Of a stretch of DNA of 64,000 nt, positions 9,212 through 63,635 are shown in pieces. This DNA is from Amphiscolops sp. MND2022 (taxonomy: Eukaryota): positions 15,128,001 through 15,192,000 of the forward strand of contig OZ076412.1 of NCBI GenBank assembly GCA_964187785.1, given 5' to 3'. Position 1 is the first letter of the stretch; every line of letters starts with the position of its first letter. Position numbers and translations under genes: made by a program. The notes beneath the pieces are model-generated. The model ran no database searches, was not told the origin of the DNA, and saw only the letters and a program-made list of their open reading frames with translations.

Positions 9212-12200
9212 TTTATGAGATTGGTAAATTTCAGTAAAATGAAAGCTTTGAAAAGCTCCAGATGATAATACTAAGCCCATAGCACGTTTTTCAAAACGAA
9301 ATTAGCATATTTTAGGAAAGAACGTTTCCTCAGAATGACCCAAAGAGTGAAAAAAAACAGTTGTCAGGTTTTTACCTTTTTGGCAGTTTTTTTTACAATT
9401 TTTGAGCTATTTCTGTGCACAAAAAGATTTGAAATACTCAATAATGACTAATGCTGGAATCCATTAGACAATTTGAAGACATAACTTTCGTTGGAATTTG
9501 CATCAAAAAAACCCCAAAATTCATGGAACAACATTTTTTTGACAAACGTTTTTTGACAATTTAACCATATTTTTCTACAAACTACGAAAGATTTTGACGA
9601 ATAGAAGTTCCATAGACATGAGCGTTGAAACAATTGGGTATTCAAAACGCGATTTGGAAAAAATGGAATGAATCCCATCAAGTTTCAACAAGGGTGTCAA
9701 TCTCCGAATTCTCCCAATTTTCGAAAACGTAGTCGCAATTTTGGACATATCCCGAAAATCTATTTCAGTCAGAAATAGCATTCGCAGGATTGAAACAGGT
9801 AGCTACCGGTGGTGTTTCAAAAAGTATCCGACAAGTTTATGCGCACAACTTTCAAAAACTTTCCTTGAAAACGCAAATTTCGACCATATTTGTTTAAAAT
9901 TCAATATCAATAAGCTCCAAGCGAAGTCTCTAGATATGTAGTACACCTTCCAAAGGATATTGTTTTGAACTGCTTGCTGGGTTGGATGATGTGACTATTC
10001 AACGACAACTAAACTCGGTATCCAGTAGGCTTAATTTTGAAGAGACATCTCTAGAGTCATGTCATCTTCTGGTTAAACTATGTGCAATAATATAAACTGG
10101 GACCGTTCAAGTTTCTTAAACATGCAAAGGACCTAGTTTTAGGCTTCTCCTATTCTCTCAGTGGCAAAAAGTACCCCAAGAATCACGCCTCAGACTCGAA
10201 AACCATTCTTCCCTAACAGGATTTGCAAAAAAACAATTGTTCGGTAAAGTCCTGTGATGGCGAAACAAGTGTCAGCTCGCAAAACTACTTTTCTCAAGTC
10301 GAAGTCAGCCGAAAAAGCAAGGGGGTATTCTTCCACCAAATGAATGTTTCGAAAAGATGCACAGAGCCGGAAAAACTGAAATGAGGTGTTTTCGACAATT
10401 TATAAGGAACCTCATCAGTTCCACATGATCAAAAGTAAAAAAAAAAAGAGGTCAACCTCGAGCCTCGGGAAACTTTTCCTTTACAGAAAACCTCAAAAAC
10501 TAAAAATTACAAAAAGTTTTCTTCAAAAATGTTTTCAAAAAACTTTTCCAAAAATTTCTCTTTAATCGGTTAATCAAATAATGCCGAAAAAAAACGAAAA
10601 GTGGCCAGCTATCTCCTATTAAATTAGGTGTTTCCTTTAAAAATGGGTCAAAATGAATCAAAGCTCCTCTTTTATTGGAACTTCTTTGCGTTTTTATAGT
10701 GCATTGGCTATTCTTGAACCTCAAGTTTATGTAGTTGTAGAACAGTTTGGGGCGGAAAATATCTCGCTGCTCAGCGGGCGTCTTGTTACTAGAAACGACC
10801 AATTACAATCATTTTTGAAAAACAGACAAACAAACGATAAGGTCACATGACTTTGTTTTTGGTTAGCCATACCACAAACCTTCCCGCTGGGGTCCATAGT
10901 TTTCAAACTGAGCTTTACTCTCATCCTTTATTTTTAAAATTTATGAAATATCATTGGGACGTCAACCACTGCTCATGGACCGCTTTTTTGAAGTTTTCAC
11001 ATTACTTTACAAGCAGAAAACGGGGGTTCGAAACAAACCACCGCCCATTTTCTCTCAAAATCAATTTAATAGCAAATTCTGATGTGACAAAAATATCAAA
11101 ATTTGATGTGACAAAAATTTGAATTATCGCCCAGCGCATGGGGGAACTTGTGGAGCATTTTAGGGTTAAATATATCCAAGTTTAACCTACTCTCATTCCT
11201 TTTGAGCCTGAGTAAGCTTTCTAGAGCCTGAATATCACTTATTTAGGAGCCTTGAATTGTTTGAAAAAAAAAGAAACCAGAGCCGCATATACGGTAAAGG
11301 AGTCGGCTTAAGTCTTTTTCCTTCTGACTCGCTTTCGTTCGAATCGTATGAACAGTTTGTGAGAAAATCGAAAAAATCGAAAAACGACGTTTTTTTGGCC
11401 ATTTTTGGGCTAAATTTGGCTATGTTTCTCACATCCCAGCCATACGAATTTAATGAAATTGCACATAAAGGACCATAATTTGATGTAGAATGACTAGAAA
11501 ATTTCGTTCGAATCGTATGGACAGTTTTTGAGAAAATCGAAAAAAGTCGAAAAATGGCTTTTTTTGGCCATTTTTGGGCTAATTTTGGCTATGTTTCTCA
11601 CATCCCAGCAATACGATTTTGATGTCATTGCACATATAGGACTCTAATATGGTGTACAACAACTGTAGAAAATTTCGTTCGAATCGTATGAACAGTTTAT
11701 GAGAAAATCGAAAAAAGTGGAAAAATGGCTGTTTTTTAGCCATTTTTGGGCTAATTTTGGCTATGTTTCTCACATCCCAGCCATATGATTTCGATGCCAT
11801 TGCACATATAGGACTCTAATATGGTGTAGAATAACTGTAGAAAATTTCGTTCGAATCGTATGGACAGTTTTTGAGAAAATCGAAAAAACTCGAAAAATGG
11901 CTGTTTTTCGGCCACTTTTGGGCTAATTTTGGCTATGTTTCTCACAACGCAGTCATACAATTTTGATGCCATTGCGCACGCAGGGGCCCCTTTGGGTGTA
12001 GAATGACTGTGCAAAATTTTATAAAAATCGTATGAACAGTTTTTGAGAAATTTGAAATTTTCATGAAAAGGTCGGGAGAAAAAAAACAACACGATTGCAT
12101 AAGTAGTCGAAAATTTTTTCCGACTCCTAAAAATTATCTTGATTATCTCCGATACAACAAACAGATGGAACAACAAAATGCTATTTCTCGTGGAATGATC

Positions 12201-14038
12201 TAAGATTAATAAAATTTCCAAAAAAATCTTTGCAACTTCTTGGTTTTTATATTTGATTCCGAACTCTTTCATCCAGATAAATAAAATTTTCCGAGAAAAT
12301 TTTCAGAATTTTCCGAGTCTTGAATTTGCTTTTTTTTCAGCGGGAAACTGGCTTTGAGATGCTCTGAACTTCTTGATTTCAATGCACAATGCTATTTCGA
12401 ATGAGCAGTTGAAGTTTCTTTGAGACCAACCTTGTGTGCATTTTCTCACAATCTGCATAGTTTTTGTTAATCTTTTGTCCTTGAAATCTTGCTGCAGTGT
12501 TTTTGAGGCTGTTTCTTGCAACCAATGGAGTATCTCTCTTTTTAGGGTTGCTTTAGCGCTTCAGCGAATATTTTCACGAAAGTGTTTCATCGAATTTAAT
12601 AACCAATATTATCCTTCCTCATTTTCTTTCCCCGTCGCCTCCGTTTTTAATTTTCGAATCACAATTTACGATTATGGACTTTTCAACAATTGTTTCCACT
12701 CATGAACTCATTGACAATTTCAAGTCAGTTTTTATCACATTAAGCAGAGTAAATTTAGTGGCTGAAAACGTTGAAAGGAAGAAAATATAATTGAAAACAA
12801 CGGAAGCTCCATTAAAATTAATGAACACAGGACTTTGTTGGAAATAAAATGCACTGAAGCACGAAAATGGCCTTGGATTGTTTCTCACTTTATCTTAATA
12901 AAGCCTGAAGTGTTATGATGTTGCAAAACGACGCTCTTCAAAAATAAGGTGAATGTAATCTTGTGTCAAATGAAAAACAAATATCGGTTTCTCAACAATC
13001 AAGGTCGAGGAATTTTTTTACAAAACTATACAACCATCTAGAGTTCTGAGAAAAATGAGAGAAAAATGAGAAATGAAAAGTCCAGTACATGTTGCTGGTT
13101 CAGCTTACAGCATTATTTGAAAATGAGTACAAAGAGGTGTAAAATTTTGTGCAATTAACCTGAGACAATTACAAACCAGTTTGGGATTGCGATATTTTTT
13201 GTATGTAGTTACCAAGGGACCTTGTCTGCTCTTTTCCGAGCTGAAAATAAAAACTCCGAATTTGTGATTTATTTTGACAATTTTTTTCGAGAAAAGTTGA
13301 AATTGCCAAAAACACCCATATGTTTGAACAAAAAAATTTTGAGCAGGGACCTTTTCTTTGTTGAAAATATCAAGAAAAGTTTTTTTTTCACCAGACCACA
13401 GAACTTCAGCTTTTTAAGGACTTTACGCCTGAAACCTAAAGATTAAAATCGCCTAAATCTAAATACGCCTAAAATCTAAAAAGTACTCGAATTTACCGAA
13501 ACATCCCCCTTGATTTTGTTGATTTCCAACCTGAACTTCCAACCTCACGTTTCTGAAATGGCGAATCAAGGGTGGACTGGAGAAACCGGCTCATTCTTCA
13601 ACTGAAAAAACCTTCAACTTTGAACGCTACACCTTTCTAATTATAAGTCGGACTTCCTTCTAGGGAAAAGCTTCGACTTGCTTCCATGTCAGCCTTTCAA
13701 ACTGTTCAAGACTTGAAGCCCGTAGCTCGAACAGTGTCAGGGTTGTTAGGCGGCGCTTCCTGTAAGAAAACGAAGACTACAGTGGTTATTTTTCAAGACC
13801 CCACGAACTGACAATTTTGTTTCTTTCCGACCCCATGTTCGGTCTACTTGGCATAAAGGTAGCAGAAGGCTGTTGCTTCGAATCCCGCGGAGTCCAAAAA
13901 GGCGTGTCGATTTTCTATTCACAAAACAAATTTCTTTACGAACATTATCTTTCTTGGTAACAAATGATCGTCAAACTTCATTGACCATTTTGAACCTTAA
14001 GCGGATCATAGATTTGGGTTTTTTAAAACCCTGCTTAC
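9212..14038 (+). repeat. Copy 1 of a ~4.83-kb tandem duplication (blocks A+B)
   Basis: 9212-11948 matches 14039-16780 (offset ~4830). 11949-14038 matches 18053-20163 (offset ~6100). Duplicated ORF pairs in the track (e.g. 9448/14277, 10653/15487, 12436/18555) confirm this. Confidence 0.95.
11276..12130 (-). mobile_element. HINE/DINE-1-like non-autonomous element, family 1, with internal ~172-bp tandem repeats
   Basis: Subterminal IRs AGGAGTCGG (11298-11306) and CCGACTCCT (12120-12128). The right subTIR is part of the hairpin AGTCGAAAATTTTTTCCGACT. A short stem-loop CCG-CATATA-CGG lies outside the left subTIR. About 4 internal units (TATGTTTCTCACA at 11421, 11590, 11762, 11934). The classification is inferred from architecture. 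Confidence 0.65.
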
Positions 14039-17000
14039 TTTATGAGATTGGTAAATTTCAGTAAAATGAAAGCTTTGAAAAGCTCCAGATGATAATACTA
14101 AGCCCATAGCACGTTTTTCAAAACGAAATTAGCATATTTTAGGAAAGAACGTTTCCTCAGAATGACCCAAAGAGTGAAAAAAAAACAGTTGTCAGGTTTT
14201 TTACCTGTTTGGCAGTTTTTTTTACAATTTTTGAGCTATTTCCGTGCACAAAATGATTTGAAATACTCAATAATGACTAATGCTGGAATCCATTAGACAA
14301 TTTGAAGACATAACTTTCGTTGGAATTTGCATCAAAAACACCCCAAAATTCATGGAACAACATTTTTTTGACAAACGTTTTTTGACAATTTAACCAAATT
14401 TTTCTACAAACTACGAAAGATTTTGACGAATAGAAGTTCCATAGACATGAGCGTTGAAACAATTGGGTATTCAAAACGCGATTTCGGAAAAATGGAATGA
14501 ATCCCATCAAGTTTCAACAAGGGTGTCAAAATCTCCGAATTCTCCCAATTTTCGAAAACATAGTCGCAATTTTGGACATTTCCCGAAAATCTATTTCAGT
14601 CAGAAATAGCATTCGCAGGATTGAAACAGGTAGCTACCGGTAGTGTTTCAAAAAGTATCCGACAAATTTATGCGAACAACTTTCAAAAACTTTCCTTGAA
14701 AACGCAAATTTCGACCATATTTGTTTAAAATTCAATATCAATAAGCTCCAAGCGAAGTCTCTAGGTATGTAGTACACCTTCCAAAGGATATTGTTTTGAA
14801 CTGCTTGCTGGGTTGGAATGATGTGACTATTCAACGACAACTAAACTCGGTATCCAGTAGGCTTAATTTTGAAGAGACATCTCGAGTCATGTCATCTTCT
14901 GGTTAAACTATGTGCAATAATATAAACTGGGACCGTTCAAGTTTCTTAAACATGCAAAGGACCTAGTTTTAGGCTTCTCCTATTCTCTCAGTGCCAAAAT
15001 GTACCCCAAGAAACACGCCTGGGACTCGAAAACCATTCTTCCCTAACAGGATCTGCAAAAAAAAACAATTTTTCGGTAAAGTCCTATGATGGCGAAACAA
15101 GTGTCAGCTCGCAAAACTACTTTTCTCAAGTCGAAGTCAGCCGAAAAAGCAAGGGGGTATTCTTCCACCAAATGAATGTTTCGAAAAGATGCACAGAGCC
15201 GGAAAAACTGAAATGAGGTGTTTTCGACAATTTATAAGGAACCTCATCAGTTCCACATGATCAAAAGTAAAAAAAAAGAGGTCAACCTCGAGCCTCGGGA
15301 AACTTTTCGTTTACAGAAAACCTCAAAAACTAAAAATTACAAAAAGTTTTCTTCAAAAATGTTTTCAAAAAACTTTTCCAAAAATTTCTCTTTACTCGGT
15401 TAGTTACATAATGCCGAAAAAAAACTAAAAGTGGCCAGCTATCTCAGAACTATTAAATTAGGTGTTTCCTTTAAAAATGGGTCAAAATGAATCAAAGCTC
15501 CTCTTTTATTGGAACTTCTTTGCGTTTTTATATTGCATTGGCTATTCTTGAACCTCAAGTTTATGTAGTTGTAGAACAGTTTGGGGCGGAAAATATCTCG
15601 CTGCTCAGCGGGCGTCTTGTTACTAGAAACGACCAATTACAATCATTTTTGAAAAACAGACAAACAAACGATAAGGTCACATGACTTTGTTTTTGGTTAG
15701 CCATACCACAAACCTTCCCGCTGGGGTCCATAGTTTTCAAACTGAGCTTTACTCCCATCCTTTATTTTTAACATTTATGAAATATCATTGGGACGTCAAC
15801 CACTGCTCATGGACCGCTTTTTTGAAGTTTTCACATTACTTTACAAGCAGAAAACGGGGGTTCGAAACAAACCACCGCCAATTTTCTCTCAAATTCAATT
15901 TAATAGCAAATTCTGATGTGACAAAAATATCAAAATTTGATGTGACAAAAATTTGAATTATCGCCCAGCGCATGGGGGCACTTGTGGAGCATTTTAGGGT
16001 TAAATATATCTAATTTTAACCTACTCTCATTCCTTTTGAGCCTGAGTAAGCTTTCTAGAGCCTGAATATCACTTATTTAGGAGCCTTGAATTGTTTGAAA
16101 AAAAAGAAACCAGAGCCGCATATACGGTAAAGGAGTCGGCTTAAGTCTTTTTCCTTCTGACTCGCTTTCGTTCGAATCGTATGAACAGTTTGTGAGAAAA
16201 TCGAAAAAATCGAAAAACGTTTTTTTGGCCATTTTTGGGCTAAATTTGGCTATGTTTCTCACATCCCAGCCATACGAATTTAATGAAATTGCACATAAAG
16301 GACCATAATATGATGTAGAATGACTGTGGAAAATTTCGTTCGAATCGTATGGACAGTTTTTGAGAAAATCGAAAAAAGTCGAAAAATGGCTGTTTTTTGG
16401 CCATTTTTGGGCTAATTTTGGCTATGTTTCTCACATCCCAGCCATACGATTTTGATGTCATTGCACATATAGGACTCTAATATGGTGTAGAACAACTGTA
16501 GAAAATTTCGTTCGAATCGTATGGACAGTTTTTGAGAAAATCGAAAAAAGTGGAAAAATGGCTGTTTTTTAGCCATTTTTGGGCTAATTTTGGCTATGTT
16601 TCTCACATCCCAGCCATACGATTTCGATGCCATTGCACAAATAGGACTCTAATATGGTGTAGAATAACTGTAGAAAATTTCGTTCGAATCGTATGGACAG
16701 TTTTTGGGAAAATCGAAAAAAGTCGAAAAATGGCTGTTTTTCGGCCATTTTTGGCTAATTTTGGCTATGTTTCTCACAACCAAGACGGATGCCACGTCCT
16801 CACAGGATTGGCTAGTGGATGGGTGCGAAACGTTTATCCCGATGACGGATGTTCTTAAAGTATTTCCATGGTTTACTATATGTATTCAATTTTGGATCAC
16901 TTAGTAACACCACTGCGATTTTTTTAGAGAACCTACAGCTAAAAGTCATGGAGTTACTGGAAACAGTTTTGTGTCTTCTGCGTGTCAGTTAACGAGGTTG

Positions 17001-20000
17001 AAGAAGTTGAGAAGGTAGCATGTTTTGGCTTTCGAAGTGTACATTCTCATCTCTCCCGACAGTGGGGAGAGATGAGAATGTACTTGAGTATTTCTTGTTA
17101 ACTGATACTTAATGCAGATTTCAACACTTTTTAAAATACGTCAAAAACATTGATGAATATTGGTGCACTTAACTACGTCAATTGAACAGCTCTGCGGTTG
17201 CTTGAATGTCTATCGATAAGTTTTCAATGAGACTTGTCTTCCATTTTCATTTTTTGACAATTTTAACACTTCTCAATCGCACACTCAAAACATCATAAGT
17301 CAACGTCAGGTTAAGATAGAGAGTTTTTCTATAGCCCATTTTTCTCGTCTATCAGAGTACTTTCCTCATGCATCCACTTGCAATCTAAGTTGTAGGGAAG
17401 TTTCTTACCTTTGGGCGGCCTGAAGTTGAACAAAAAAGTCAAGTCGAAAAAAAAACATTTTGAATGTTCAAAGTCACATATTTTTTCACCGGCAATGCTG
17501 GTAGGCTAAAAATGCCGCAAATAGGCTAAATGGTCTCGTTGAGCAGTAATTTGGGCAGAAACTACCCACTGTGACTGTATCTTTGAAAATTTGGGCAAAA
17601 ATGGTAGAAATAACTTTTTTTCGAAAAAAATTCTCGGAAATTTGTCTATTCCTCACGTTGTTTCCATCCGATTTGCGCCAAAATTGCCCTGCACACTCCC
17701 CACGAACCGTTGAACAATATTGTGGTCCACGTCCGAATCGCTCCGAGAACTCTGAGACAAGTTATGAGGTCATGATTGAGAAAAACTGAAAACTGAAAAG
17801 TCGTTTTTTCTTGAAAAAATAGGGTTTTTCGGCATGACCAAAGATCTTTTCGGCAAAACATCAGAAAAAAAGTGCTGAGAATATCAAGTTGTGCACGTGT
17901 GCAAAGTTTCAGCCCAATCCTGCGGACAGTTTTCGAGATCTTACTCAAAAGTTTACATTTTGGATATGGTTGTTATTTAGCTCCGCCCTCGATCTCGGGA
18001 TAGGGGCCCTACCCATCCCTCAGAACAATTTTTGGGGATTCCCCCACTCACCCAGTCATACGATTTTGATGCCATTGCGCACGCAGGGGCCCCTTTGGGT
18101 GTAGAATGACTGTGCAAAATTTTATAAAAATCGTATGAACAGTTTTTGAGAAATTTGAAATTTTCATGAAAAGGTCGGGAGAAAAAAAAACAACACGATT
18201 GCATAAGTAGTCGAAAATTTTTTCCGACTCCTAAAAATTATCTTGATTATCTCCGATACAACAAACAGATGGAACAACAAAATGCTATTTCTCGTGGAAT
18301 GATCTAAGATTAATAAAATTTCCAAAAAAAATCTTGACCGCTTAAACTTTGCAACTTCTTGGTTTTTATATTTGATTCCGAACTCTTTCATCCAGATAAA
18401 TAAAATTTTCCGAGAAAATTTTCAGAATTTTCCGAGTCTTGAATTTGCTTTTTTTTCAGCGGGACACTGGCTTTGAGATGCTCTGAACTTCTTGATTTCA
18501 ATGCACAATGCTATTTCGAATGAGCAGTTGAAGTTTCTTTGAGACCAACCTTGTGTGCATTTTCTCACAATCTGCATAGTTTTTGTTAATCTTTTGTCCT
18601 TGAAATCTTGCTGCAGTGTTTTTGAGGCTGTTTCTTGCAACCAATGGAGTATTTCTCTTTTTAGGGTTGCTTTAGCGCTTCAGCGAATATTTTCACGAAA
18701 GTGTTTCATCGAATTTAATAACCAATATTATCCTTCCTCATTTTCTTTCCCCGTCGCCTCCGTTTTTAATTTTCGAATCACAATTTACGATTATGGACTT
18801 TTCAACAATTGTTTCCACTCATGAACTGATTGACAATTTCAAGTCAGTTTTTATCACATTAAGCAGAGTAAATTTAGTGGCTGAAAACGTTGAAAGGAAG
18901 AAAATATAATTGAAAACAACGGAAGCTCCATTTAAAATTAATGAACACAGGACTTTGTTGAAAATAAAATGCACTGAAGCACGAAAATTGCCTTGGATTG
19001 TTTCTCACTTTATCTTAATAAAGCCTGAAGTGTTATGATGTTGCAAAATGACGCTCTTTAAAAATAAGATGAATGTAATCTTGTGTCAAATGAAAAACAA
19101 ATATCGGTTTCTCAACAACCAAGGTCGAGAGAATTTTTTTACAAAACTATACAACCATCTAGAGTTCTGGAGTTCAGCAAAAAAGAATGCAGAAAAATGA
19201 GAAATGAAAAGTCCAGTACATGTTGCTGGTTCCGCTAACAGCATTATCTGAAAATGAGTACAAAGAGGTGTAAAATTTTGTGCAATTAACCTGAGACAAT
19301 TACAAACCAGTTTGGGATTGCGATATTTTTTGTATGTAGTTACAAAGGGACCTTGTCTGCTCTTTTCCGAGCTGAAAATAAAAACTCCGAATTTGTGATT
19401 TATTTTTTTCGAGAAAAGTTGAAATTGTCAAAAATACCCATATGTTTGAACAAAAAAATTTTGAGCAGGGACCTTTTCTCAGTTGAAAATATCAAGAAAA
19501 TAGTTTTTTTTCACCAGACCACAGAACTTCAGCTTTTTAAGGACTTTACGCCTAAAATCTAAAGAGTAAAATCGCCTAAATCTAAATACGCCTAAAATCT
19601 GAAGAGTACTCGAATTTACCGAAATATCCCCCTTGATTTTGTTGATTTCCAACCTGAACTTCCAACCTCACGTTTCTGAAATGGCGAATCAAGGGTGGAC
19701 TGGAGAAACCGGCTCATTCTTCAACTGAAAAAACCTTCAACTTTGAACGCTACACCTTTCTAATTATAAGTCGGACTTCCTTCTAGGGAAAAGCTTCGAC
19801 TTGCTTCAATGACAGCCTTTCAAACTGTTCAAGACTTGAGGCCCGTTGCTCGAACAGTGTCAGAGTTGTTAGGCGGCGCTTCCTGTGAGAAAACGAAGGC
19901 TACAGTGGTTATTTTTTCAAGACCCCACGAACTGACAATTTTGTTACTTTCCGACCCCATGTTTGGTCTACTTGGCATAAAGGTAGCAGAAGGCTGTTGC

Positions 20001-20168
20001 TTCGAATCCCGCGGAGTCCAAAAAGGCGTGTCGATTTTCTATTCACAAAACAAATTTCTTTACGAACATTATCTTTCTTGGTAACAAATGATCGTCAAAC
20101 TTCATTGACCATTTTGAACCTTAAGCGGATCATAGATTTGGGTTTTTTAAAACCCTGCTTATTTTATG
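14039..20168 (+). repeat. Copy 2 of the tandem duplication, with ~1.27 kb extra sequence at 16781-18050
   Basis: Same alignment as copy 1. TTTATG is present at the start (9212), junction (14039) and end (20163-20168). Confidence 0.95.
16109..18233 (-). mobile_element. Family 1 element, duplicated copy, interrupted by a 1.27-kb insert
   Basis: Same termini as the 11276 copy. Units at 16251, 16423, 16595, 16766; the array breaks at 16780 and resumes at 18051. Confidence 0.65.
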
Positions 20169-28989: not shown

Positions 28990-30694
28990 TGGTCCTTTGG
29001 AACTGAGTTTCCTCTAACTGTGCCACTTTTCTTTTTCATTTAGTCAAAGGGTCCTCTTAACTTTCATGTTTTCGGCATGGAGGAAGCGTTTTTCGAGCTT
29101 GAAGCTCCTTTTTGGCACTATGAGAATTGTTTCCGAAGAAAAAAGTTCCGGGAAAATTCCATTTAAAATTTTTTTAATGTTTCCGGTTGGGAGGAAGCAG
29201 TTCCCGAGTTTACGGGTATCGTTTCCAGCACTGAAAATTTGATGAATATATTTAATATTGTTCCATTGCATATTTGAAAAAAAAACTTTAACTCTTTTGA
29301 ACCTTGAGCAAGGCGCTGATCAGGACCGTTTACGGCATGTCTTATTTTCCCCAAAACGAAAACCTCTTTCTCCTCTTTCTCCTGAGAAGAGACACATCTT
29401 CGATATGAGAGAATTTGATATGCCAATTTCTAAAGACAATCCTAAAAGCATTTTAAGCAGTGCTTAAAATGCTTTTAGGATTGTCTTTAGAGCTGCCAAC
29501 AAAAAATGAGTCGGACTTTCCCATATTGTTTTCTAAAAAAGCCAAACTTCAAGCCTGGAACAAACCAAAATCGTATATGAAGAGGCACCTATTTCAACGC
29601 AACATTTTCCCTCAAAAACATAATGAGCAACTTACAGGCACGGCGAAATGATGACGATTCTGTTTCGATAGAATTCGTAACTAGCTACTGAAGCAGATAC
29701 AGTTTGATCACATGATGCGAGCAGAGCAAACACGATTGAAGTGAAGATAAAAGTAGCAAGTCATTGAAAACACAAATCCAAGTTGGTACAATCACTCAGC
29801 AACATCAAACTATAGAACCATGATCAGAATCTAGAACGAGAAGGCATTCAATAAGATAATTGAGAGCTAAGTTAACTTTCCAGTTTGAAAGATCAAATAC
29901 CACCGTTTCAAGAACGTGTCCGGAGAAATGGTCAACGGTTGCAGCTAGAGGGTACATTTCAAAGCTTAGGGCCTAAGTAATAATACAGGATTGGAGATAA
30001 AGATCCATGTTTCCAACAAACTGGATTTGATATTTTTGATATGAATAGAACAAACTGGGAGCGCATACGCCTCGAGCCTCAAAAGGAACCAAAGTGTTTT
30101 AAACCTAACTTGGCCCCTGTGACGAATTCGGCACATTTAGTTTCTGCAAATTCTAAACGCACCAGCTGATTGTATGGTAAAGAAAACTCTTGAATAAGAT
30201 TTTCAGACGATATTGCATAGCACTCGACGCCTTTTCACGGAATATTGACGTGATGTCTCCGAAATCCAGAAATTGGGACCAAAAAATCAAGAAAAAATTG
30301 AGTGCAGATTTTCCGTTTTTCCCGTTTGTGGCCCTTTTTATCCCACTGGTATCAACATTGGGTCAAAGCGGCCCCAGCATGTTTTGAAACATGCTGAAAA
30401 GCAATCAGAGACACGACGCGTGCAAAGTTTTGGCCCAAAGTCCGGAGCCAGTGCGGGACCCCAGCCCAGCAGTTTAAAAATTGATTTGAAAGCCCTGATG
30501 CTCTTCTTTCGAACACTCTATAAATCGTTTGTCGGACTTGAATAGTTTAGGAGATACTGCGGTTTAAAGTTTAAGCACCTGATTTTTGGATGGATCCAGA
30601 ATTTTCCTGGTTAACTTAAGGCTAAATATGCACAGCAACTGTTTTTGAGAAACTTAATGGATTCATTCGTTATCATATACTCCACCTTGGTAAT

Positions 30695-30976
30695 TGTTCT
30701 GAATGAAATTTTATTTGAAATCGATGAATCATTCCTTCAAATAATTGACTTCAAATTATAGTTCAAAATTGTAAAATCATACAAGTATCTTGGATGAATA
30801 TTTCCCCGCATTTTGTAAATACTTTCACATATGTTTTTTGTTTTCCCGCATCCTGTGTGTTTTAATTGCTAAACACAAATCTTCCGGAAATAATAATTTT
30901 TCCTTTTTAATCACTTTTTTGGCTGATGGAGCGGCCTGGTCCGCCATTAGAAGAGTAGGGCTATCGGTGAGACACA
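30695..30976 (+). repeat. 5' LTR (282 bp)
   Basis: TGTTCTGAATG...GAGACACA; about 9 differences from the 3' LTR by hand count. Confidence 0.95.
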
Positions 30977-30979
30977 TTT

Positions 30980-31001
30980 TGGTCCGCCATAGACACCGGA
31001 C
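30980..31001 (+). promoter_or_regulatory. Primer-binding site (probably tRNA-Tyr type)
   Basis: TGGTCCGCC...CCGGAC starts 3 nt after the LTR and resembles the TGGTCC(TT/G)..GAGCCGGA PBS of BEL elements. The tRNA assignment is inference. Confidence 0.7.
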
Positions 31002-31276
31002 TTACGAACTTTGAACTTTCGAAAAGAAACTACTTTTTTGGAACTTTGTACCAAAAGTTGTCCTTACAAAAGTAACACTCGATTGTCAAGTAACTAATTA
31101 CCAAGTAACTAACTTGCAAACCCTTCAACCTGCTAGTCTCAGCTTCATCCACGATTGATCGTCATTCCCCGGTTAGCTCTTTCCATTTTACAACTTAAAG
31201 GCATTTCGTTTTTTCGACGGTGTAAAAACTGTGGATCCCCCTGATAGTTTGTCCTTTATTATTACTTCCTAAAATT

Positions 31277-31967
31277 TTGGATACAGATAGTCACATTTTT
31301 ACGAAGTCTCTGATCGACCTTCAGATTACCCCTAGCAAACCGAAAACTTCACTCATGACAAATGTTATCGGTGCAAGTTCACTAAAACGAGCTTTACAAA
31401 ACTTGGATTTTGATAACCGAAATACCCTTGGGAACTTTATCACAGCCATTCCTTCTTTGAGCTTGAACCCCTATGTTCAGTGTGATACGCTCAAATTGTC
31501 TTTTCTACTGGATCATGGTATTCTTAAAAATACGAATCAATTAGTTATTTGGCATGACATTCTGAACAACTCCTTGACTCCCCATAAATCAAATAACAAT
31601 ACAGCTCTTACCCCTAAAGAATTAGCAACTGAATTGTTAAAATATAAATCACGTATAACAGCCTTAGTCTATTGTGAACGTATTGGTGCACCCCATGCAT
31701 TTGATGATCTTCGTGATCAAGATTTCATTGTTATTCGAGTCACCGAAAACCTTCTTTCTCGTAGAAAACAATGATATTCCTCTTTTGAATGAATATTCCC
31801 GACTTCATCCAGTAGCGGATATTGAATTAAAGTCTTTGTTCATTGTTTTGGAGCACCGAAACAATCTTAAAGCTTTATCCCAAAATACAAGAAGTCCCAG
31901 CAAGAAACCTTCTCAAAGGAAAAGAAGATTGAAGAAGCTTTTAGAGCAGAGTTTGAAGTCAACTTAA
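31277..31967 (+). pseudogene. Extra ORF upstream of gag inside the BEL element; SGNH/GDSL esterase-like (one frameshift near 31770)
   Basis: 165-aa ORF plus an overlapping 97-aa frame. Motifs VIGASSL, AIPSLSL and VIWHDILNNS are spaced like SGNH blocks I-III; the fold is inference. ORF start is TTG in the track. Confidence 0.55.
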
Positions 31968-32130
31968 CGTTAGAAGTTTTTTATTTCATCCTGTGAGTTG
32001 AGTTCGGTGTGGTCACTGGACGATTAGCTCAACGGTGGCCTATCCGACTCGACTTTGAGGATTATTTACTTTGTTTATTGTTCGTGATAGTGTTGTATTG
32101 TAATCTGAAAAAGGTCTGTAACTGAAAGTA

Positions 32131-35100
32131 GTGCTTCCGTACAACCAGCCACTGAAGATTAAAAAACTTACTCGCATCCGAGGTGGTCACAAAGGTGCTT
32201 TCACTAGATTGGAACAGAAAGTTGATGAATTTACGGTCACTGCTATTGACTCTTCAACTAAATTGTTTCAAGGTGAAGCTTCGCTGAAGACATTACAAGA
32301 TAGAATTGCAATGATTCATAAGTTTGATGCGGAAATTGAATTATTGATAGATGGAGATGATTTAGCCAATGAACTGGAACAGCAAACGGAGTTCCATGTT
32401 TCTGCTAGTGTTACCATCGCTAGGTTGTCTGCATTAATTGAGAATTACAAAAAAGAACGCGATAGACCTCCGTGTGAGTTTTCAACAGACTCTTCTCCAT
32501 CAAGCTCTGTCACATCGAGTAGATTGAAGTTGCCTAAACTTCAGTTACCAACATTCACTGGATCATACACTGACTGGATGGGTTTCTTTGACCTATTCAA
32601 GGCCTCCGTCGATTCTAATACCCATCTCTCCAATTCAGAGAAGCTGAACTATTTGAAAGCCTGTGTGAAGGGTGAAGCAGCGAGACTCATTAGTTCAATC
32701 TCGATAACTGACGCAAACTACAGTATTGCCTTTGCTTTGTTGAAAGATCGATATGAAAATAAAGAGCATCATTCAAGCTCATTTGCAAGCAATTTGGTCG
32801 CAGCCAGTTTTGAAAACTGAATCCGCTCTTGGATTGAGAAAACTTCTGGAACTCACCAATGAGCATTTACGAGCACTCGTTGAACTTGGTCAACCAGTAG
32901 AGCACTGGAATGCTATCTTAGTTTTTGTTCTGACGGACAAGATGGATCCAGAGTCACGTAAGCAGTGGCAGCTGGATAATCTTGGCACTGACGTTTTGTC
33001 TTGGGAATTATTGTCGAAATTCCTTGACACAAGAAGCCGTGCACTCGGATCGGGTGGCACAAAGGTCACACCGCAATCAAGTGTGACATCTCCCTGCAAC
33101 CAAGGGAACCCAACTCTGACCAAAAGGGTTCAGAATTATGCTGTTCAAGGCTCATCGTGTGAATCTTGCCAAGAGGATCATCGCCTTTACGCTTGTTCAC
33201 AATTCAAAGGAATGTGTCTTGCTGATAGACATAAGTTCATAAAAGACAAAAAACAGTTTCAACTGCTTCTAATCAGGACACTCGTCCAATGCGTGCCCAT
33301 CTAAGTTCACTTGCCGTGAGTCCAAAATGAAACATCACACCTTGCTTCATCGACCTCAGAAACAGCTCCCTGATCAACGCACCTCTACAAAGACTTATTC
33401 AAGTATGAATTCAACTTCCAACAAAATGGAGTCTACAAAGCAATTCACCACAGGGCACTTTAGTGCTGACAATGAAATAAATACTGTTCTTTCTACATCT
33501 CTTGTAACAATTCGGAATTCATCGGGAGACGCGATCAAGCTGCGGGCTCTTAGATTCCGGTTCACAAGCCAGTTTCGTAACAGAAGATGTTGCAAAGACC
33601 CTCATGCTGCCAACTCAGCGCAGCCAAATAAATGTTTCTACAATGGGTTCTTCTCATTCCAAAAAAACTCGAGGCTTATTGCCAGTGAACTTGAATGACA
33701 AAATCGAAGTTAATCTTCATCTCATACAAAAAATCTCCAATACCATTCCCGATAAAGAAATTGACGTTTCGACCATGCGCCATGTGAACAATTTAGCTGA
33801 TCCCACTTTCAATGTTCCTAATAAGGTTGATCTCTTGCTAGGTGCAGATGTTATAGAAGACATTATGCTTGATAATAAAATAAAGGACAACGGCTTGTGC
33901 ATTCGGGATTCCGTATTCCGTTGGGTTGTGTCTGGTCCTTTGTATTCGTCTGGCAGTAACAACGTTGTGTCCCACATAACTAGCACTCCGAATTGTGACT
34001 CTGACCAACTCCTTTTGAAAATTTGGGAAATAGAAAGTGTCCCTGAAACTAGACACTTAACTTTGGATGAGCGTCGTTGTGAAGAGCACTTCGATAGCAC
34101 TACAAAACGCAATGAAGACGGCCGTTTCGTAGTACAGATGCCATTTAAAGATGGACCCCACAATTTAGGTCTTTCGAAAGCGAACGCAATGAAGCGTTTC
34201 ATTCGTGTCGAATACACTTTGCGCCATAATGTCGACCTTTTTCGAAAGTATTCAGCTTTCATTCAAGAATTCATTGACCTTGGCCACTTGGAGAAGGTCC
34301 AACCCGGGGAGATTAATAATTCTCCAAACTTCTACTTGCCTCATCATTGCGTGCTGAAAGAAGATAGTACAACCACCAAGTTGCGTGTTGTATTTGACGC
34401 TAGTGCTAAAACGACAACTGGTTTTTCACTTAATGATTGTTTGCTAGTTGGTCCCAAACTTCAAGATGATTTGTTCAATATTCTCATACGATTCCGTTTC
34501 TTCAAGATTGCTTTATCAGCTGATGTAGCGAAGATGTATCGGCAAGTTGAGCTGGATAAAGCCGATCGAGACTTTCATCGGATCCTTTGGAGATTTACAG
34601 CTGATGGTCCGGTTGAAACCTTACGCATGACCCGAGTTACATATGGCGTAGCTTCCTCATCGTATCATTCAATCCGATCTTTGCGAGAATGTGCCAATTT
34701 GTCAGAAGTATCCACTGAGGTTCAAAGAGCTATATTGAGAGATTTTTATGTTGATGACATTCTCACTGGAGCCAATTCGATCGATGAAGCTCGAATACTC
34801 CAAAAGCAATTAGTAGAAACTCTTAAACGAGGAAGATTCGATCTCCGCAAGTGGACTTCGAACGAGTCCAGCATTATCTTAGACCTTCGCCCGAGTATCG
34901 CGAAGCAAATGATAATTTGGAGTTTTTAGACAAAGACCATACATTAAAAACGCTCGGTATTGTTTGGCAACACACCGAAGATCGCTTCGTTTTTAAGGTT
35001 TCCCACATCGAAAAGGAAAACTTTAAAGCAAAGGTTTTGATCAAAAGACATGCTCAGTGACATTTCAGAGACTTTCGACCCATTGGGTTGGTTGTCACCA

Positions 35101-37330
35101 GTTACCATTTTCTTGAAACAGTTATTGCAAAGGGCTTGGGAAGCAAAAATTTCATGGGATGATCACCTCCCTTCCGAACTTGCCGACCAATATTTGAAGT
35201 GGAGAACGAAATTGATCTCTTTAAAGGATGTGGAATTGCAACGATTCGTATTACTTGATGGATTCTCGGACAAGATTGAGTTGCATCTCTTCTGTGATGC
35301 ATCAGAAAGGGCTTATGCCGCTTGTATTTATATTGTTGCCACAGATTCTCATGGCAGGCGGAAGTCATCCCTGCTTGTTGCCAAAACCAAGGTAGCCCCG
35401 TGAAAACACAATCTGTTCCGAGATAAGAATTATGTGTTGCTTTGCTAGGCACTAGGTTATATCAATTTGTCATCAAGTCTATTGGTCAAACGCCAGTTGT
35501 TATTGAAGAAACCCTCGCGTGGACTGATTCAACAATAGTTCTGTGTTGGTTGTCAAAAGAACCATCTTGCTGGTCAACTTTTGTTTCAAACAGAATTAGT
35601 GAAATTCAAAGTGAAAACAAATTGAATTGGAATCATGTGTGTTCCGAGGAGAATCCTGCGGATCCTGCATCTCGAGGAATTGACCCTGACGAAATAAACC
35701 AACATGACCTATGGTGGAATGGTCCGAAGTGGTTAATAACAGGGGAATTTCCGAAATCATTGTCAATTGTTGAAACATCTGAAGAGTTGAAAAAGTCGAC
35801 CCTAACAAGAGGAATTACCAGTCTTCATACCTCTGTGGCTCACAGGGATACCAAAAAGGATGTTATTGATTTGTTGAGGTTTAACTCCTTATACAAAGTC
35901 CTCGGAATTCTTGCTTACGCTAGACGTTTTATTGACAAACTGAAGAAGAACGTGGTTGTTTTACCAAGTTACATTACTGCCCCAGAGTTAACAGAGTCAA
36001 TCATAATTTTGATTCGCCAAGAACAAAAGAAACGATATTCGGAAGAAATCCGAACTCTAGAAATTGCACAACAAGTTAAGCCCAAGAGTCAAATCTGCAA
36101 ATATACCCGTTTCTCGATAATGGCATTCTTTGTGTCGGAGGAAGATTAGTACATGCATAGTTGCCCGAAGAAAGCAAGTTTCAAAGACTAATTCCTCAAG
36201 ACAGTCACCTCGCACGTCTAATTGTATTGAACTCTCACCAGGTGACACTCCATGGTGGGACTAGTCAAACCATTGCTCACATTTGAACTCGTTTCTGGAT
36301 TCCCAGTTCTAGAAATTTGGTTCGAAAAATGATGATGAATTGTGTCAATTGTAATCGCTTCAACTCGAAGCCAGTTTTCCCCTTGATGGGAGATCTTCCA
36401 AAAACAAGAGTTGACCCTCCTATAAAAGCCTTTGAGGACGTGGGCCTAGACTTTGCTGGTCCTTTCCTTTGTAGGAAATCTCCGAATTCTCATGAGAAAT
36501 CCTACCTAGCACTTTTTGTGTGCTTTACCAGTAAAGCAGTTCACCTGGAACTAGTCTCCGATCTTAGTACAGCAGCATGTATTGCAGCCATTAGAAGATT
36601 CGTTTCTCGCAGAGGTTGTCCTAAAAATCTTTATAGTGACAATGGGAAAAATTTTGTTGGTTCGGAGAAAGAAATAGCAGACCTGCAAAAGATATTAAGG
36701 AATGAACACTGTGACTCCTTGCAGGCTGAAGCAGCAGGCTTGCACATCAAGTGGTTCTTCATCCCTCCAAGAGCTCCTCACTTTGGTGGCCTATGGGAAT
36801 CAGCAATCAAGTGTGCAAAGATACATCTCCGAAAAGTTATGGGAAACAAAGTTGTCCTTTGAAGAACTATGTACTCTACTTTGTCAAATTGAATTGATTT
36901 TGAATTCAAGACCACTCTGCCCATTATCAGAAGATCCAAATGAGTTTCTCTTAACTCCTGCTCATTTCTGCTTGGGTGGAAAGTTGGAGAATCTACCCTT
37001 GAGCCAAACTACCTATGATTTGAAAAACCCTGACAGTACACATTCACTCTCATTTTTGGAAAAGATGGGTCAAAGAATATGTACTCTCCCTGCAAGAAAG
37101 AAATAAATGGAGACTAGAAACTTTTAATTTGAAAGTTGGTGATATTGTTTCGTAATTGATGACAATGTTCCCCCTCTACAGTGGCCATTGGCTAAAATCC
37201 AACATGTCTACACCGGCCCAGACAAGTTTGTGAGAGTCGTAAAAATAAAAACCGCTACAGGAATCTACAATCGACCAGTGCAAAAATTGAAGAAAATGTT
37301 TGATGCTAATTCCAATGTTGATTTCAAATG
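32131..37330 (+). pseudogene. BEL/Pao gag-pol, multiply frameshifted
   Basis: DUF1759-type gag LKLPKLQLPTFTG..W..F; knuckles CESCQEDHRLYAC and HHTLLH; protease LRAL/DSGSQASF; RT YLPHH, KLRVVFDAS, FYVDD; RNase H LHLFCDAS, WTDS, NPADPASRG; integrase [30 protein letters not shown]; C-terminal QWPLAKI...RPVQKL. Confidence 0.97.
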
Positions 37331-37418
37331 ACTTTGTTCGCTAACCTTATATTTCTTTTACTGTGCCTTATTGCGCTTGCGTGTTCAACGCTTTTGTTAA
37401 TTTCTTCCCTGCGAAATC

Positions 37419-37429
37419 AAGGCAGGCGG
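37419..37429 (+). promoter_or_regulatory. Polypurine tract
   Basis: AAGGCAGGCGG just upstream of the 3' LTR. Confidence 0.75.
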
Positions 37430-37434
37430 TGTTA

Positions 37435-37717
37435 TGTTCTGAATGGAATTTTATTTGAAATCGATGAATCATTCCTTCAAATAATTGACTTCAAATTATA
37501 GTTCAAAATTGTAAAATCATACATGTATCTTGGATGAATATTTCCCCGCATTTTGTAAATACTTTCACATGTGTTTTTTGTTTTCCCGCATCTTGTGTGT
37601 TTTAATTGCTGAACACAAATCTTCCGGAAATAAAAATTTTTCCCTTTTTAATCACTGTTTTGGCTGATGGAGCGGCCTGGTCCGCCATTAGAAGAGTAGG
37701 GCTATCGGTGAGACACA
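37435..37717 (+). repeat. 3' LTR (283 bp)
   Basis: Matches 30695-30976 and is followed by TSD GTAAT. Confidence 0.95.
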
Positions 37718-37845
37718 GTAATAATTATATTATTGTTTCAATACTAGAAAGGAAAATATTCAACGGCGTCTTATTTTCCGTCCATATGCCATATAGGAAA
37801 TTAACCTCTGCCGCGTTTTCCCTATCTTTACTCATTTTATAATCA

Positions 37846-61780: not shown

Positions 61781-63426
61781 CCGCCCTTCCGGAAGGAAAC
61801 CACTCAAGATGGCTCTGAAGAATACAATTTTTCAGATTCCAAAGAGCGTCGCAATATCAATCATCATAGAACAGGGGCGGTCAAAAGTTAATTGTCATTG
61901 CAAATAATTGCAATTTTTCATTGCAATAATTGATTGCTTTACTTGTGCAATTACAATTAACTGATTGCGCTCTTACCAATTAATTGCATATCTTAGTTCT
62001 TACAATGTGGCTGTAAATAGGTCGAATTTTTCTGGTCGAAAGGACAGAGGTCGAACCTTTTGATCGAATTGCAGGGATCGAATGGAATGCGGTCGAATTT
62101 TATCGTATTTGTTGTATGGCTGGGTCGCTTCGCTCCCTTCGCCAAGTAGCAACATTGAGGCATGGCCATATGGCACGTCGCTCCGCTTCGCTTCTGCATT
62201 CAGGGCACTAGGGGTATGTGAACATATCTGACTACGTTATAAAAATTTCGATCCGAGTTGTTTCGATCCCATTCAAAAATTTGGTGTCGACCTGAGCACT
62301 AACTCTGATTTTCGATCCCGTTCTGTTGGCGCCAGTCAATTGCGAGATCAGAAACTCAAACTCGAACGTGACTGATGAAACTTATAACTCAAAACACTTA
62401 GAAACTTTATCAAGATTTAAGTTGGAAAAATACAAGTCTAAGCAAAAATGACCCTATGTAAAAAAAACACCACCCCCCCGTCCCGGAAAACCACTAATTC
62501 AATCACCTTGAAACTTGGCACACATATAGTGGTGGTGATACACTAACTTTTCACTCTTAACAACCTACCCCGTATCTCCCCTGGGTTCCGAGCAATTAAC
62601 ACCCAAAGTGACCTAGGTCGGACCCCCTGAAATCCCAATTTTGATATATTAATTATTGTGATTTTCTCATATGACCTTGAAGGAAATTCATCTCTGTTGA
62701 AATTAATGATATTTACATTGTGTAAACATACTTTCTAACCCACCTAACCAACATGCCAAAACCACCACATTCTTTGTTTAGTTAGTCAATAACTTCATTT
62801 TATGCTTTAAATGTCATTTATTTATACAACATATTTCAACTGATATTTGCTTATATTTACTGTAGAATTGTAAACCATATGTATACCATTATTAGATAGA
62901 GATTTGCTCCACTGAATAGCTATAGTCAAGTTGGGTCTCAGGACCGCGAGACTAATTAATCAACTTCTCAATCTTCACAACTTTTCGCTAGAGTCAGAGC
63001 GACTAAGTAGCTACTCTCATAGTTGGAGAGCCGGAGCGCGTGAAGATACAGTGAGGGAAGTGTGTGTGTGCAGGATCACATCGGATCCAAATCAGTGCAA
63101 AGAGGAATCGCAGGAGATTCCACGGGTCACATCGGACCCATCAAGCCAAAAGATACAGTCCTTTAAAACACAAGAAACCAGGAATTGTTTAGTGACGGTC
63201 CACAGCACTAAGCAACGGATCAGGGCGGCGTAAAGCTTGTCAAGCCTCAGCGCAGGATAAGGGCAAGCAGCCGTTACATTTGGTCCGCCGACCCGGACAA
63301 CTCGTTGGTCCGCCGACCCGGACAACTCGTTGGTGGACGACCCGGACTAGAAGAAGACGACTCGTTGGTGGACAACTGAGAAGATTGCCCAAGAAGAACA
63401 AGTGTCTGGATCTTGGAGTTGCTGAT

Positions 63427-63606
63427 TTTGTGTCTCTGGGAGATTGGGCTACTGTGTCTCTGGGAGATTGGGCTATTGTGTCTCTGGGAGATTGGGCTAC
63501 TGTGTCTCTGGGAGATTGGGCTATTGTGTCTCTGGGAGATTCGGCTACTGTGTCTCTGGGAGATTGGGCTATTGTGTCTCTGGGAGTTTGGGCTATTGTG
63601 ACTTTG
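63427..63606 (+). repeat. 24-bp minisatellite, ~7.5 copies
   Basis: A(C/T)TGTGTCTCTGGGAGATTGGGCT units. Confidence 0.95.
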
Positions 63607-63635
63607 GGAACTGAGTTCAATCAAGAAGAGAAGAA

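Follow-up and report, generated by a model that had tools for sequence, protein, structure and literature searches.

A stand-alone 5' accessory gene with a predicted SGNH fold in BEL/Pao and LINE retrotransposons of Amphiscolops

The small gene described here, ORF0, appears to be an accessory gene that many BEL/Pao and LINE families carry, conserved and stand-alone, at their 5' end. Its product has a predicted SGNH fold, and the gene has likely hopped between element classes repeatedly and is likely read by leaky scanning. Taken as a whole, this explanation is regarded as reasonably probable. Its components differ in strength: there is little doubt about the architecture, the selection on the gene and its sharing across classes; for catalysis by the protein, the chances are about balanced.

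ORF0 was found in a stretch of 64,000 nucleotides on contig OZ076412.1 of Amphiscolops sp. MND2022 (the window), which contains a complete, dead BEL/Pao element at positions 30695-37717 of the forward strand. The element is flanked by a 5-bp target-site duplication (GTAAT at 30690-30694, repeated at 37718-37722). Comparison of the LTR pair delimited a 5' LTR of 282 nt (TG...CA, 30695-30976) and a 3' LTR of 283 nt (37435-37717), which are about 97% identical and differ by seven substitutions and one gap. Three nucleotides past the 5' LTR lies a primer-binding-site-like TGG stretch (30980-30997); the 17-nt primer-site pattern was present in 29 of 147 loci. The gag-pol region (32112-37331) has many broken frames and its gag has lost the start codon. 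Its pieces still matched the Pfam families DUF1759, Peptidase_A17, rve and DUF5641, and the BEL/Pao domain order (DUF1759 gag, protease, RT, A17, integrase, DUF5641) fits the pieces in the window as well as the sister copies. BEL/Pao elements are not usually known to have a separate gene 5' of gag-pol. The element in the window departs from this layout since ORF0 stands in front of gag-pol. Elsewhere in the window, recent local duplications with spacings of about 4.8 and 6.1 kb (9369-20168; 96-100% identical, with 172-bp tandem units) and a 24-bp tandem array (63387-63626) were seen.

ORF0 extends from an ATG at 31355 to a stop codon at 31967, between the primer-site-like stretch and gag. Its start codon is in weak context and the C-terminal tail of its product is basic. 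Among the best 150 of 2,649 genome candidates scored with ORF0, more than 50 were at least 90% identical, and in 22 of 29 sister loci a single open frame covered the whole of ORF0 (204 codons from the ATG, which one of the 22 lacks). Thus, ORF0 is not a chance frame. A sequence-only reading of the window had proposed a BEL/Pao element with an additional ORF between primer site and gag. This was confirmed by the LTRs, the target duplication, the set of Pfam families and ORF0 itself, which was retained both in sister copies and in diverged BEL lineages. The motifs on which that reading relied (VIGASSL, AIPSLSL, VIWHDILNNS) all lie within the frame 31226-31774, and the single frameshift that it had noticed is real: the remainder of ORF0 continues in another frame up to 31967, which places the frameshift of the window copy near 31,770. 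By contrast, two of its measures had to be corrected, as the ORF has 204 codons from the ATG at 31355 instead of about 230 and the spacer to gag (31968-32111) comprises 144 nt in all five sisters checked, not about 160 bp.

For an overview of the carriers of ORF0, 80 genome loci were taken from the search matches, hand-picked for diversity or as neighbouring stretches, and 75 of them hold ORF0. In a Pfam classification whose queries left out Gypsy and Copia, the nearest gene that could be recognised behind these 75 copies was a BEL gag-pol in 31 cases, a LINE ORF1/APE-RT in 38 and a tnp2-like transposase in two, with no recognised gene in the remaining four. In all 31 BEL loci, ORF0 is located 5' of gag. 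In the LINE carriers it constitutes a third ORF, closed by its own stop codon, in front of a separate ORF1 that often contains PHD and CCHC domains. As a lead only, this ORF1 would fit type IC of the L2/CR1 elements given in Table 1 of PMC4120745. Homologues were also present at 17 metagenome loci, three contigs showing the full order ORF0, ORF1 and APE/RT and several more a PHD ORF behind ORF0; a BEL context was not detected among these 17 loci. The capture of a module across retrotransposon classes, which the sequence-only reading had suggested, is supported by these homologues 5' of LINE ORF1, both in this genome and on metagenome contigs. Within the BEL elements of this genome the gene is unevenly distributed: of 20 elements hand-picked by their A17 domain, 18 lacked ORF0, one possessed it and one retained a fragment.

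Some loci point to further carriers or arrangements. At L051+L115, L052 and L109+L110, ORF0 lies 5-7 kb upstream of a Transposase_21 ORF (tnp2, CACTA-like), with tandem repeats between them. These tnp2-linked loci represent two diverged units, which show the same order and about 70% DNA identity. As the ends of the elements were looked for and not found, a tnp2-like DNA transposon is rated as a probable third carrier class. Upstream of an ORF0 homologue on metagenome contigs, an ORF for a PIF1 helicase with GIY-YIG (L106:2-2425) and a GIY-YIG ORF (L104:2-481) were observed, a possible further carrier. At L050, L067, L121 and L123, the ORF0 cassette is duplicated in tandem before LINE or BEL elements, and at L139 (2450-3022 and 8817-9371) it lies within a direct repeat of 1.37 kb that is present at either end of a BEL element. 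The same genome also harbors multicopy canonical GDSL ORFs (L148-L167; 39 matches), most of them with the motifs GDS, GxND and DxxH, for which tblastn revealed no similarity to ORF0.

ORFs of a different kind lie in or near other BEL families of this genome. A family within the RT clade of the window element, lacking ORF0, carries an antisense ORF of 293 codons for a JmjC protein (L088:2583-3461 and L090:2571-3449, minus strand), which scored 25.1 bits in Pfam at a cut-off of 24 and possesses the HxD...H motif. It had 138 matches in the genome, many of them paired about 7.07 kb apart and therefore likely inside LTRs; among the titles listed by a literature search there was no report of a JmjC ORF in BEL elements. 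Just upstream of another BEL gag, an antisense ORF for a MYST acetyltransferase was found (L087:2686-3645, minus strand; MOZ_SAS, E 1e-84), and no LTR pair was seen around it. Different frames of 227-229 codons in or near the leader of further BEL families (L078:5879-6565, minus strand; L082:3315-3995, plus strand) had no Pfam match.

The rate of nonsynonymous to synonymous change indicates that ORF0 is under purifying selection. Three pairs of BEL subfamilies, which share one member, gave dN/dS values of 0.134-0.162, compared to 0.104 for pol as a control in the same pair, and a LINE-linked pair gave 0.065 near saturation. Young pairs of the same subfamily showed values of 0.47-1.3, as expected from decay after insertion. 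Within the clade of the window element, ORF0 has diverged at a similar rate as gag-pol (52-57% versus 57-60% identity), and no shared flanking DNA around ORF0 was seen between families. Conflicting trees make repeated transfer of ORF0 between element classes likely. A tree of ORF0 rejected a single clade of BEL-linked copies (AU p 0.0017, 20 rows), and in the RT tree the carriers appeared in three places, a single ORF0-bearing clade being rejected as well (AU p 0.017, 36 rows), though both p-values are overstated because the loci were hand-picked and are related. The RT of L066/L068 falls inside the clade of the window element and the ORF0 of these loci outside it. Since one transfer would give one split between BEL and LINE copies, which is not seen, more than one exchange or an independent pick-up is likely. 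The ORF0 tree comprised 20 of 33 loci, near-copies and tnp2-linked rows having been left out; its deep branches have weak support, none of the starred branches would by itself require a second origin, and without a root the tree does not identify a donor.

Leaky scanning typically goes with a first AUG in weak context, few AUGs within the ORF that it opens and a second AUG in strong context. In 36 ORF0s, 75 ATG triplets were counted where 272 were expected, which makes ATG their most depleted trinucleotide, while its reverse-strand control CAT was not depleted (343 versus 331 expected), nor was ATG in the downstream ORFs (220 versus 245 expected); these loci are related copies. Out-of-frame ATGs numbered 68, compared to 150 by codon shuffle. 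A purine occupied position -3 at six of 36 ORF0 starts, against 15 of 21 downstream starts. Past the ORF0 stop, the first ATG opened a frame of at least 100 codons in 21 of 36 loci. At the protein level, Met accounts for 0.23% of the ORF0 residues and is missing internally from 93 of 134 proteins, whereas the canonical GDSL ORFs of the same genome contain two to five each. The two tnp2-linked copies, which have no gene close behind, contain five and eight ATGs. Depletion of ATG together with the weak start context argues for leaky scanning, which is probably how the family is read. Less clear is the subfamily of the window element, a partial exception with out-of-frame ATGs that simple leaky scanning does not explain: all 29 sisters have six to eight ATGs in ORF0 and the window copy has nine. 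In the sister L047, the seven ATGs are all out of frame, one of them in strong context, and open frames of three to 31 codons; its leader and spacer are ATG-free. Five other ORF0s from BEL elements or metagenomes contain five to eleven ATGs. For non-LTR retrotransposons, translation of the second ORF is described as an open question in the pertinent part of PMC3894237.

A profile search of 1.84 billion representatives yielded 876 proteins (clusters at 50% identity) at E <= 0.001. Among the best 150 of these matches, the relatives mostly have about 200 residues, and members read from ten clusters carried no names. An AlphaFold2 model based on 134 sequences, which are about 30-40% identical to one another, reached a pLDDT of 96.4 and a pTM of 0.88. 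Its top Foldseek match was the GDSL lipase 3p94 (E 5e-4, TM 0.46), the Foldseek TM-scores being only about 0.45. VIA, run exhaustively over 48,161 chains, ranked SGNH proteins on top, with 6vjp (Z 10.7, rmsd 3.4, 140 aligned, model residues 1-174) and 3p94 (Z 10.6, rmsd 3.6, 152 aligned); GDSL/SGNH entries predominate among the best 50 VIA matches, and a further fold search agreed. Language-model features of the relative P0044 matched, at 0.90, clusters in which 21-23% of the members bear Lipase_GDSL_2. The protein is therefore predicted to have the three-layer alpha/beta fold of SGNH proteins, and the esterase resemblance noticed in the letters has passed a check by fold searches on which it could have failed.

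No SGNH family was among the Pfam families listed for the pieces of the window, P0003 or 28 members of alignment A2, nor among 25 of the 49 families listed for 134 members of alignment A3; the identities TPR_ZFYVE26 and KaiA_N were weak, below cut-off and rejected. PDB sequence searches with ORF0 produced one chance match at E 1.6 and, in a second search, none. When hhalign was used to compare ORF0 with 18 of the canonical GDSL ORFs, the alignment (probability 13.8%) was out of register and provided no residue map. The Atlas search with P0003 gave no usable match. Among viral contigs, 46 pattern matches to ORF0 were obtained, none of them confirmed, and in the viral fold library SGNH-named entries ranked top, none at E 0.001. 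Of 7,992 candidates scored in a search for longer proteins, one matched (P0219, which is probably a run-on), weak evidence that fusions of ORF0 to other proteins may be rare. No RNA run was among the sequencing runs listed, and one run gave two short, uninformative contigs.

Conservation in the 134 sequences is concentrated at S8 (90%), G34 (85%), H67 (93%), D68 (93%), N71 (84%), N72 (94%), H77 (87%), R109 (90%) and H152 (93%). By motif and the order of secondary structures, S8, G34, N71/N72 and H152 were mapped to the SGNH blocks. S8 (block I) is situated at the junction of strand 3-6 and helix 8-15 of the model, in a GAS instead of a GDS motif. G34 (block II) is Gly in 85% of the family and Ser in the BEL clade of the window element. 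N71 and N72 (block III) follow strand 63-65 and are both candidates for the SGNH Asn, and H152 (block V) precedes helix 155-167. Relative to SGNH proteins, the motifs of blocks I and III are remodelled. For the Asp of block V (DxxH), the corresponding position 149 is variable and Asp is absent from its four commonest residues in the 134 sequences. The C-terminus is rich in K and R. The sequence-only reading had called the protein possibly catalytically degenerate, which agrees with the loss of the block V Asp but not with the Ser, Asn and His, still 84-94% conserved. As SGNH enzymes with a Ser-His dyad and without the block V Asp are described in the relevant part of PMC9487903, the ORF0 protein may be such a dyad enzyme.

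On this basis, the following course of events is proposed. ORF0 would be translated from the element's own RNA, with some ribosomes initiating at its weak AUG and others passing the AUG-poor ORF0 and spacer to the stronger AUG of gag or ORF1; in the subfamily of the window element, the short out-of-frame ORFs would require reinitiation too. The cassette could thereby dock ahead of any element and leave its genes undisturbed, which would explain why it travels. The protein might be a slow Ser-His dyad esterase or a binder of acyl chains whose basic tail holds RNA or acidic membranes, and it might promote the accumulation of the element's ribonucleoprotein or particle on membranes, or its passage across them, a role suggested for the ZfL2-1 esterase in the literature on that protein. 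A wider formulation can be offered tentatively: in animal transposons, the large SGNH family (876 clusters at 50% identity) would act as a plug-in enzyme for counter-defence or membrane targeting, carried as an AUG-free, leaky-scanned 5' cassette that docks before an element's first gene and was traded repeatedly among BEL/Pao, several LINE lineages and a CACTA-like DNA transposon. Rather doubtful, yet deserving serious consideration, is the assumption that cassette and translation are the same and the protein is a non-catalytic SGNH derivative like Oskar OSK, binding RNA or a host protein and, for example, shielding element RNA from silencing or localising it in the germ line. The lost triad Asp, the remodelled motifs of blocks I and III, the K/R-rich C-terminus and the structural match to OSK (5a4a, Z 8.1) speak for it, as do the dead GDSL derivatives mentioned for Athena-L elements in PMC5408684, and a role in host counter-defence would explain usefulness to LTR, LINE and perhaps DNA elements more readily than one in a single replication step. 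On the other hand, few residues of the 134 sequences are as conserved as the predicted nucleophile Ser (90%) and the His (93%), and a dead enzyme would seldom keep this pair.

It is very improbable that the main task of ORF0 is to throttle translation, as a long upstream ORF which sets the dose of Gag or ORF1p and whose protein is secondary. Although the weak start context and the ATG depletion, conserved across classes, would suit such a function, a dN/dS near that of pol, a confident globular fold and conserved pocket residues indicate selection on the protein, and the selection data largely refute this idea. Equally improbable is a separate small mobile element or host gene fragment inserting into the leaders of retrotransposons. 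This might account for the patchy spread and the tree conflict, for the tandem copies in L050, L067 and L121 and for the four of 75 loci without a recognised gene behind ORF0. It contrasts with the fixed place and orientation inside LTRs in many families, a divergence matching that of gag-pol in the clade of the window element (52-57% versus 57-60%), the absence of common flanking DNA between families and a start-codon tuning that suits the gene behind. The accessory gene with predicted SGNH fold adds a BEL/Pao layout with a gene before gag, a LINE layout with three ORFs and a protein family missed by Pfam. It also offers a concrete route for the movement of genes between transposon classes, since an AUG-poor 5' cassette could do without its own promoter, splice site or protease site. 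Moreover, the role of esterases in retroelements becomes testable because the protein is small and stand-alone, is present or absent in sister lineages of one genome and has natural variants of the active site.

Oskar OSK, an RNA-binding domain, resembles the ORF0 model over 145 aligned residues (5a4a, Z 8.1, rmsd 3.8). It is cited as a non-catalytic SGNH protein in a passage of PMC3905857; unlike OSK, ORF0 keeps the Ser and the His. With the CE2 carbohydrate esterases and NanS, PMC9487903 illustrates that Ser-His without Asp, the residues left in ORF0, can be catalytic. Structures of this type were found by VIA (2wao, Z 7.9; 3pt5, Z 7.1), but these are microbial enzymes with 7-10% identity to ORF0 and their substrate is not transferable. 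Among transposons, an SGNH hydrolase gene captured by a Helitron, a DNA element, is reported for the platyfish in PMC4021074 and is likened to ORF0 by description only.

SGNH esterases are known as ORF1p domains of CR1, L2, RTEX and Penelope-like elements, and ZfL2-1 is described as hydrolysing esters slowly and binding to acidic liposomes (PMC3905857, PMC4120745). What ORF0 and ZfL2-1 ORF1p, as portrayed there, have in common is an SGNH fold, predicted in the case of ORF0, upstream of the RT gene and basic peptide motifs. By motif register only, H67 of ORF0 would lie four positions ahead of the block III Asn and may match H191, which occupies such a place in ZfL2-1 and is presented as transposon-specific. 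They differ in that the esterase of ZfL2-1 makes up all or part of ORF1p, which has a coiled coil, and retains the complete Ser-His-Asp triad (PMC3905857, PMC4120745), whereas ORF0 is a stand-alone gene of 200 residues whose LINE carriers possess their own ORF1 (often PHD and CCHC) and hence three ORFs. The two proteins are too diverged for sequence methods to show common descent, and the ZfL2-1 esterase was absent among the matches listed by the fold searches, which does not speak against kinship. Of the tie to the CR1/L2 esterases drawn in the sequence-only reading, the SGNH fold has held as a prediction; ORF0 is, however, not recognisably a CR1/L2 ORF1 esterase and its LINE carriers keep a separate ORF1.

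The nearest precedent in LTR retrotransposons is the GDSL/SGNH ORF3 of the bdelloid Vesta elements, which according to PMC5408684 is common to Athena/Terminon elements, where catalytically dead GDSL derivatives occur in Athena-L. Like ORF0, it is a separate SGNH ORF in an LTR retrotransposon and of a type common to unrelated retroelement classes. As far as described in that source, ORF3 of Vesta follows gag and pol in rotifer retrovirus-like lineages, has intact catalytic residues and typically forms its own transcription unit. ORF0, on the contrary, lies 5' of a BEL/Pao gag, is common to APE-RT LINEs, lacks the triad Asp and bears the signature of leaky scanning. The literature covered, which did not extend to Repbase or most subscription journals, contained no description of an SGNH ORF placed ahead of a BEL/Pao gag. 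Thus, an esterase common to several retroelement classes is of an already known kind, and what is new is that the host is a BEL/Pao element, that the gene stands alone on the 5' side, that the LINEs have three ORFs, that the family is divergent and lacks the Asp, and that the design is AUG-poor.
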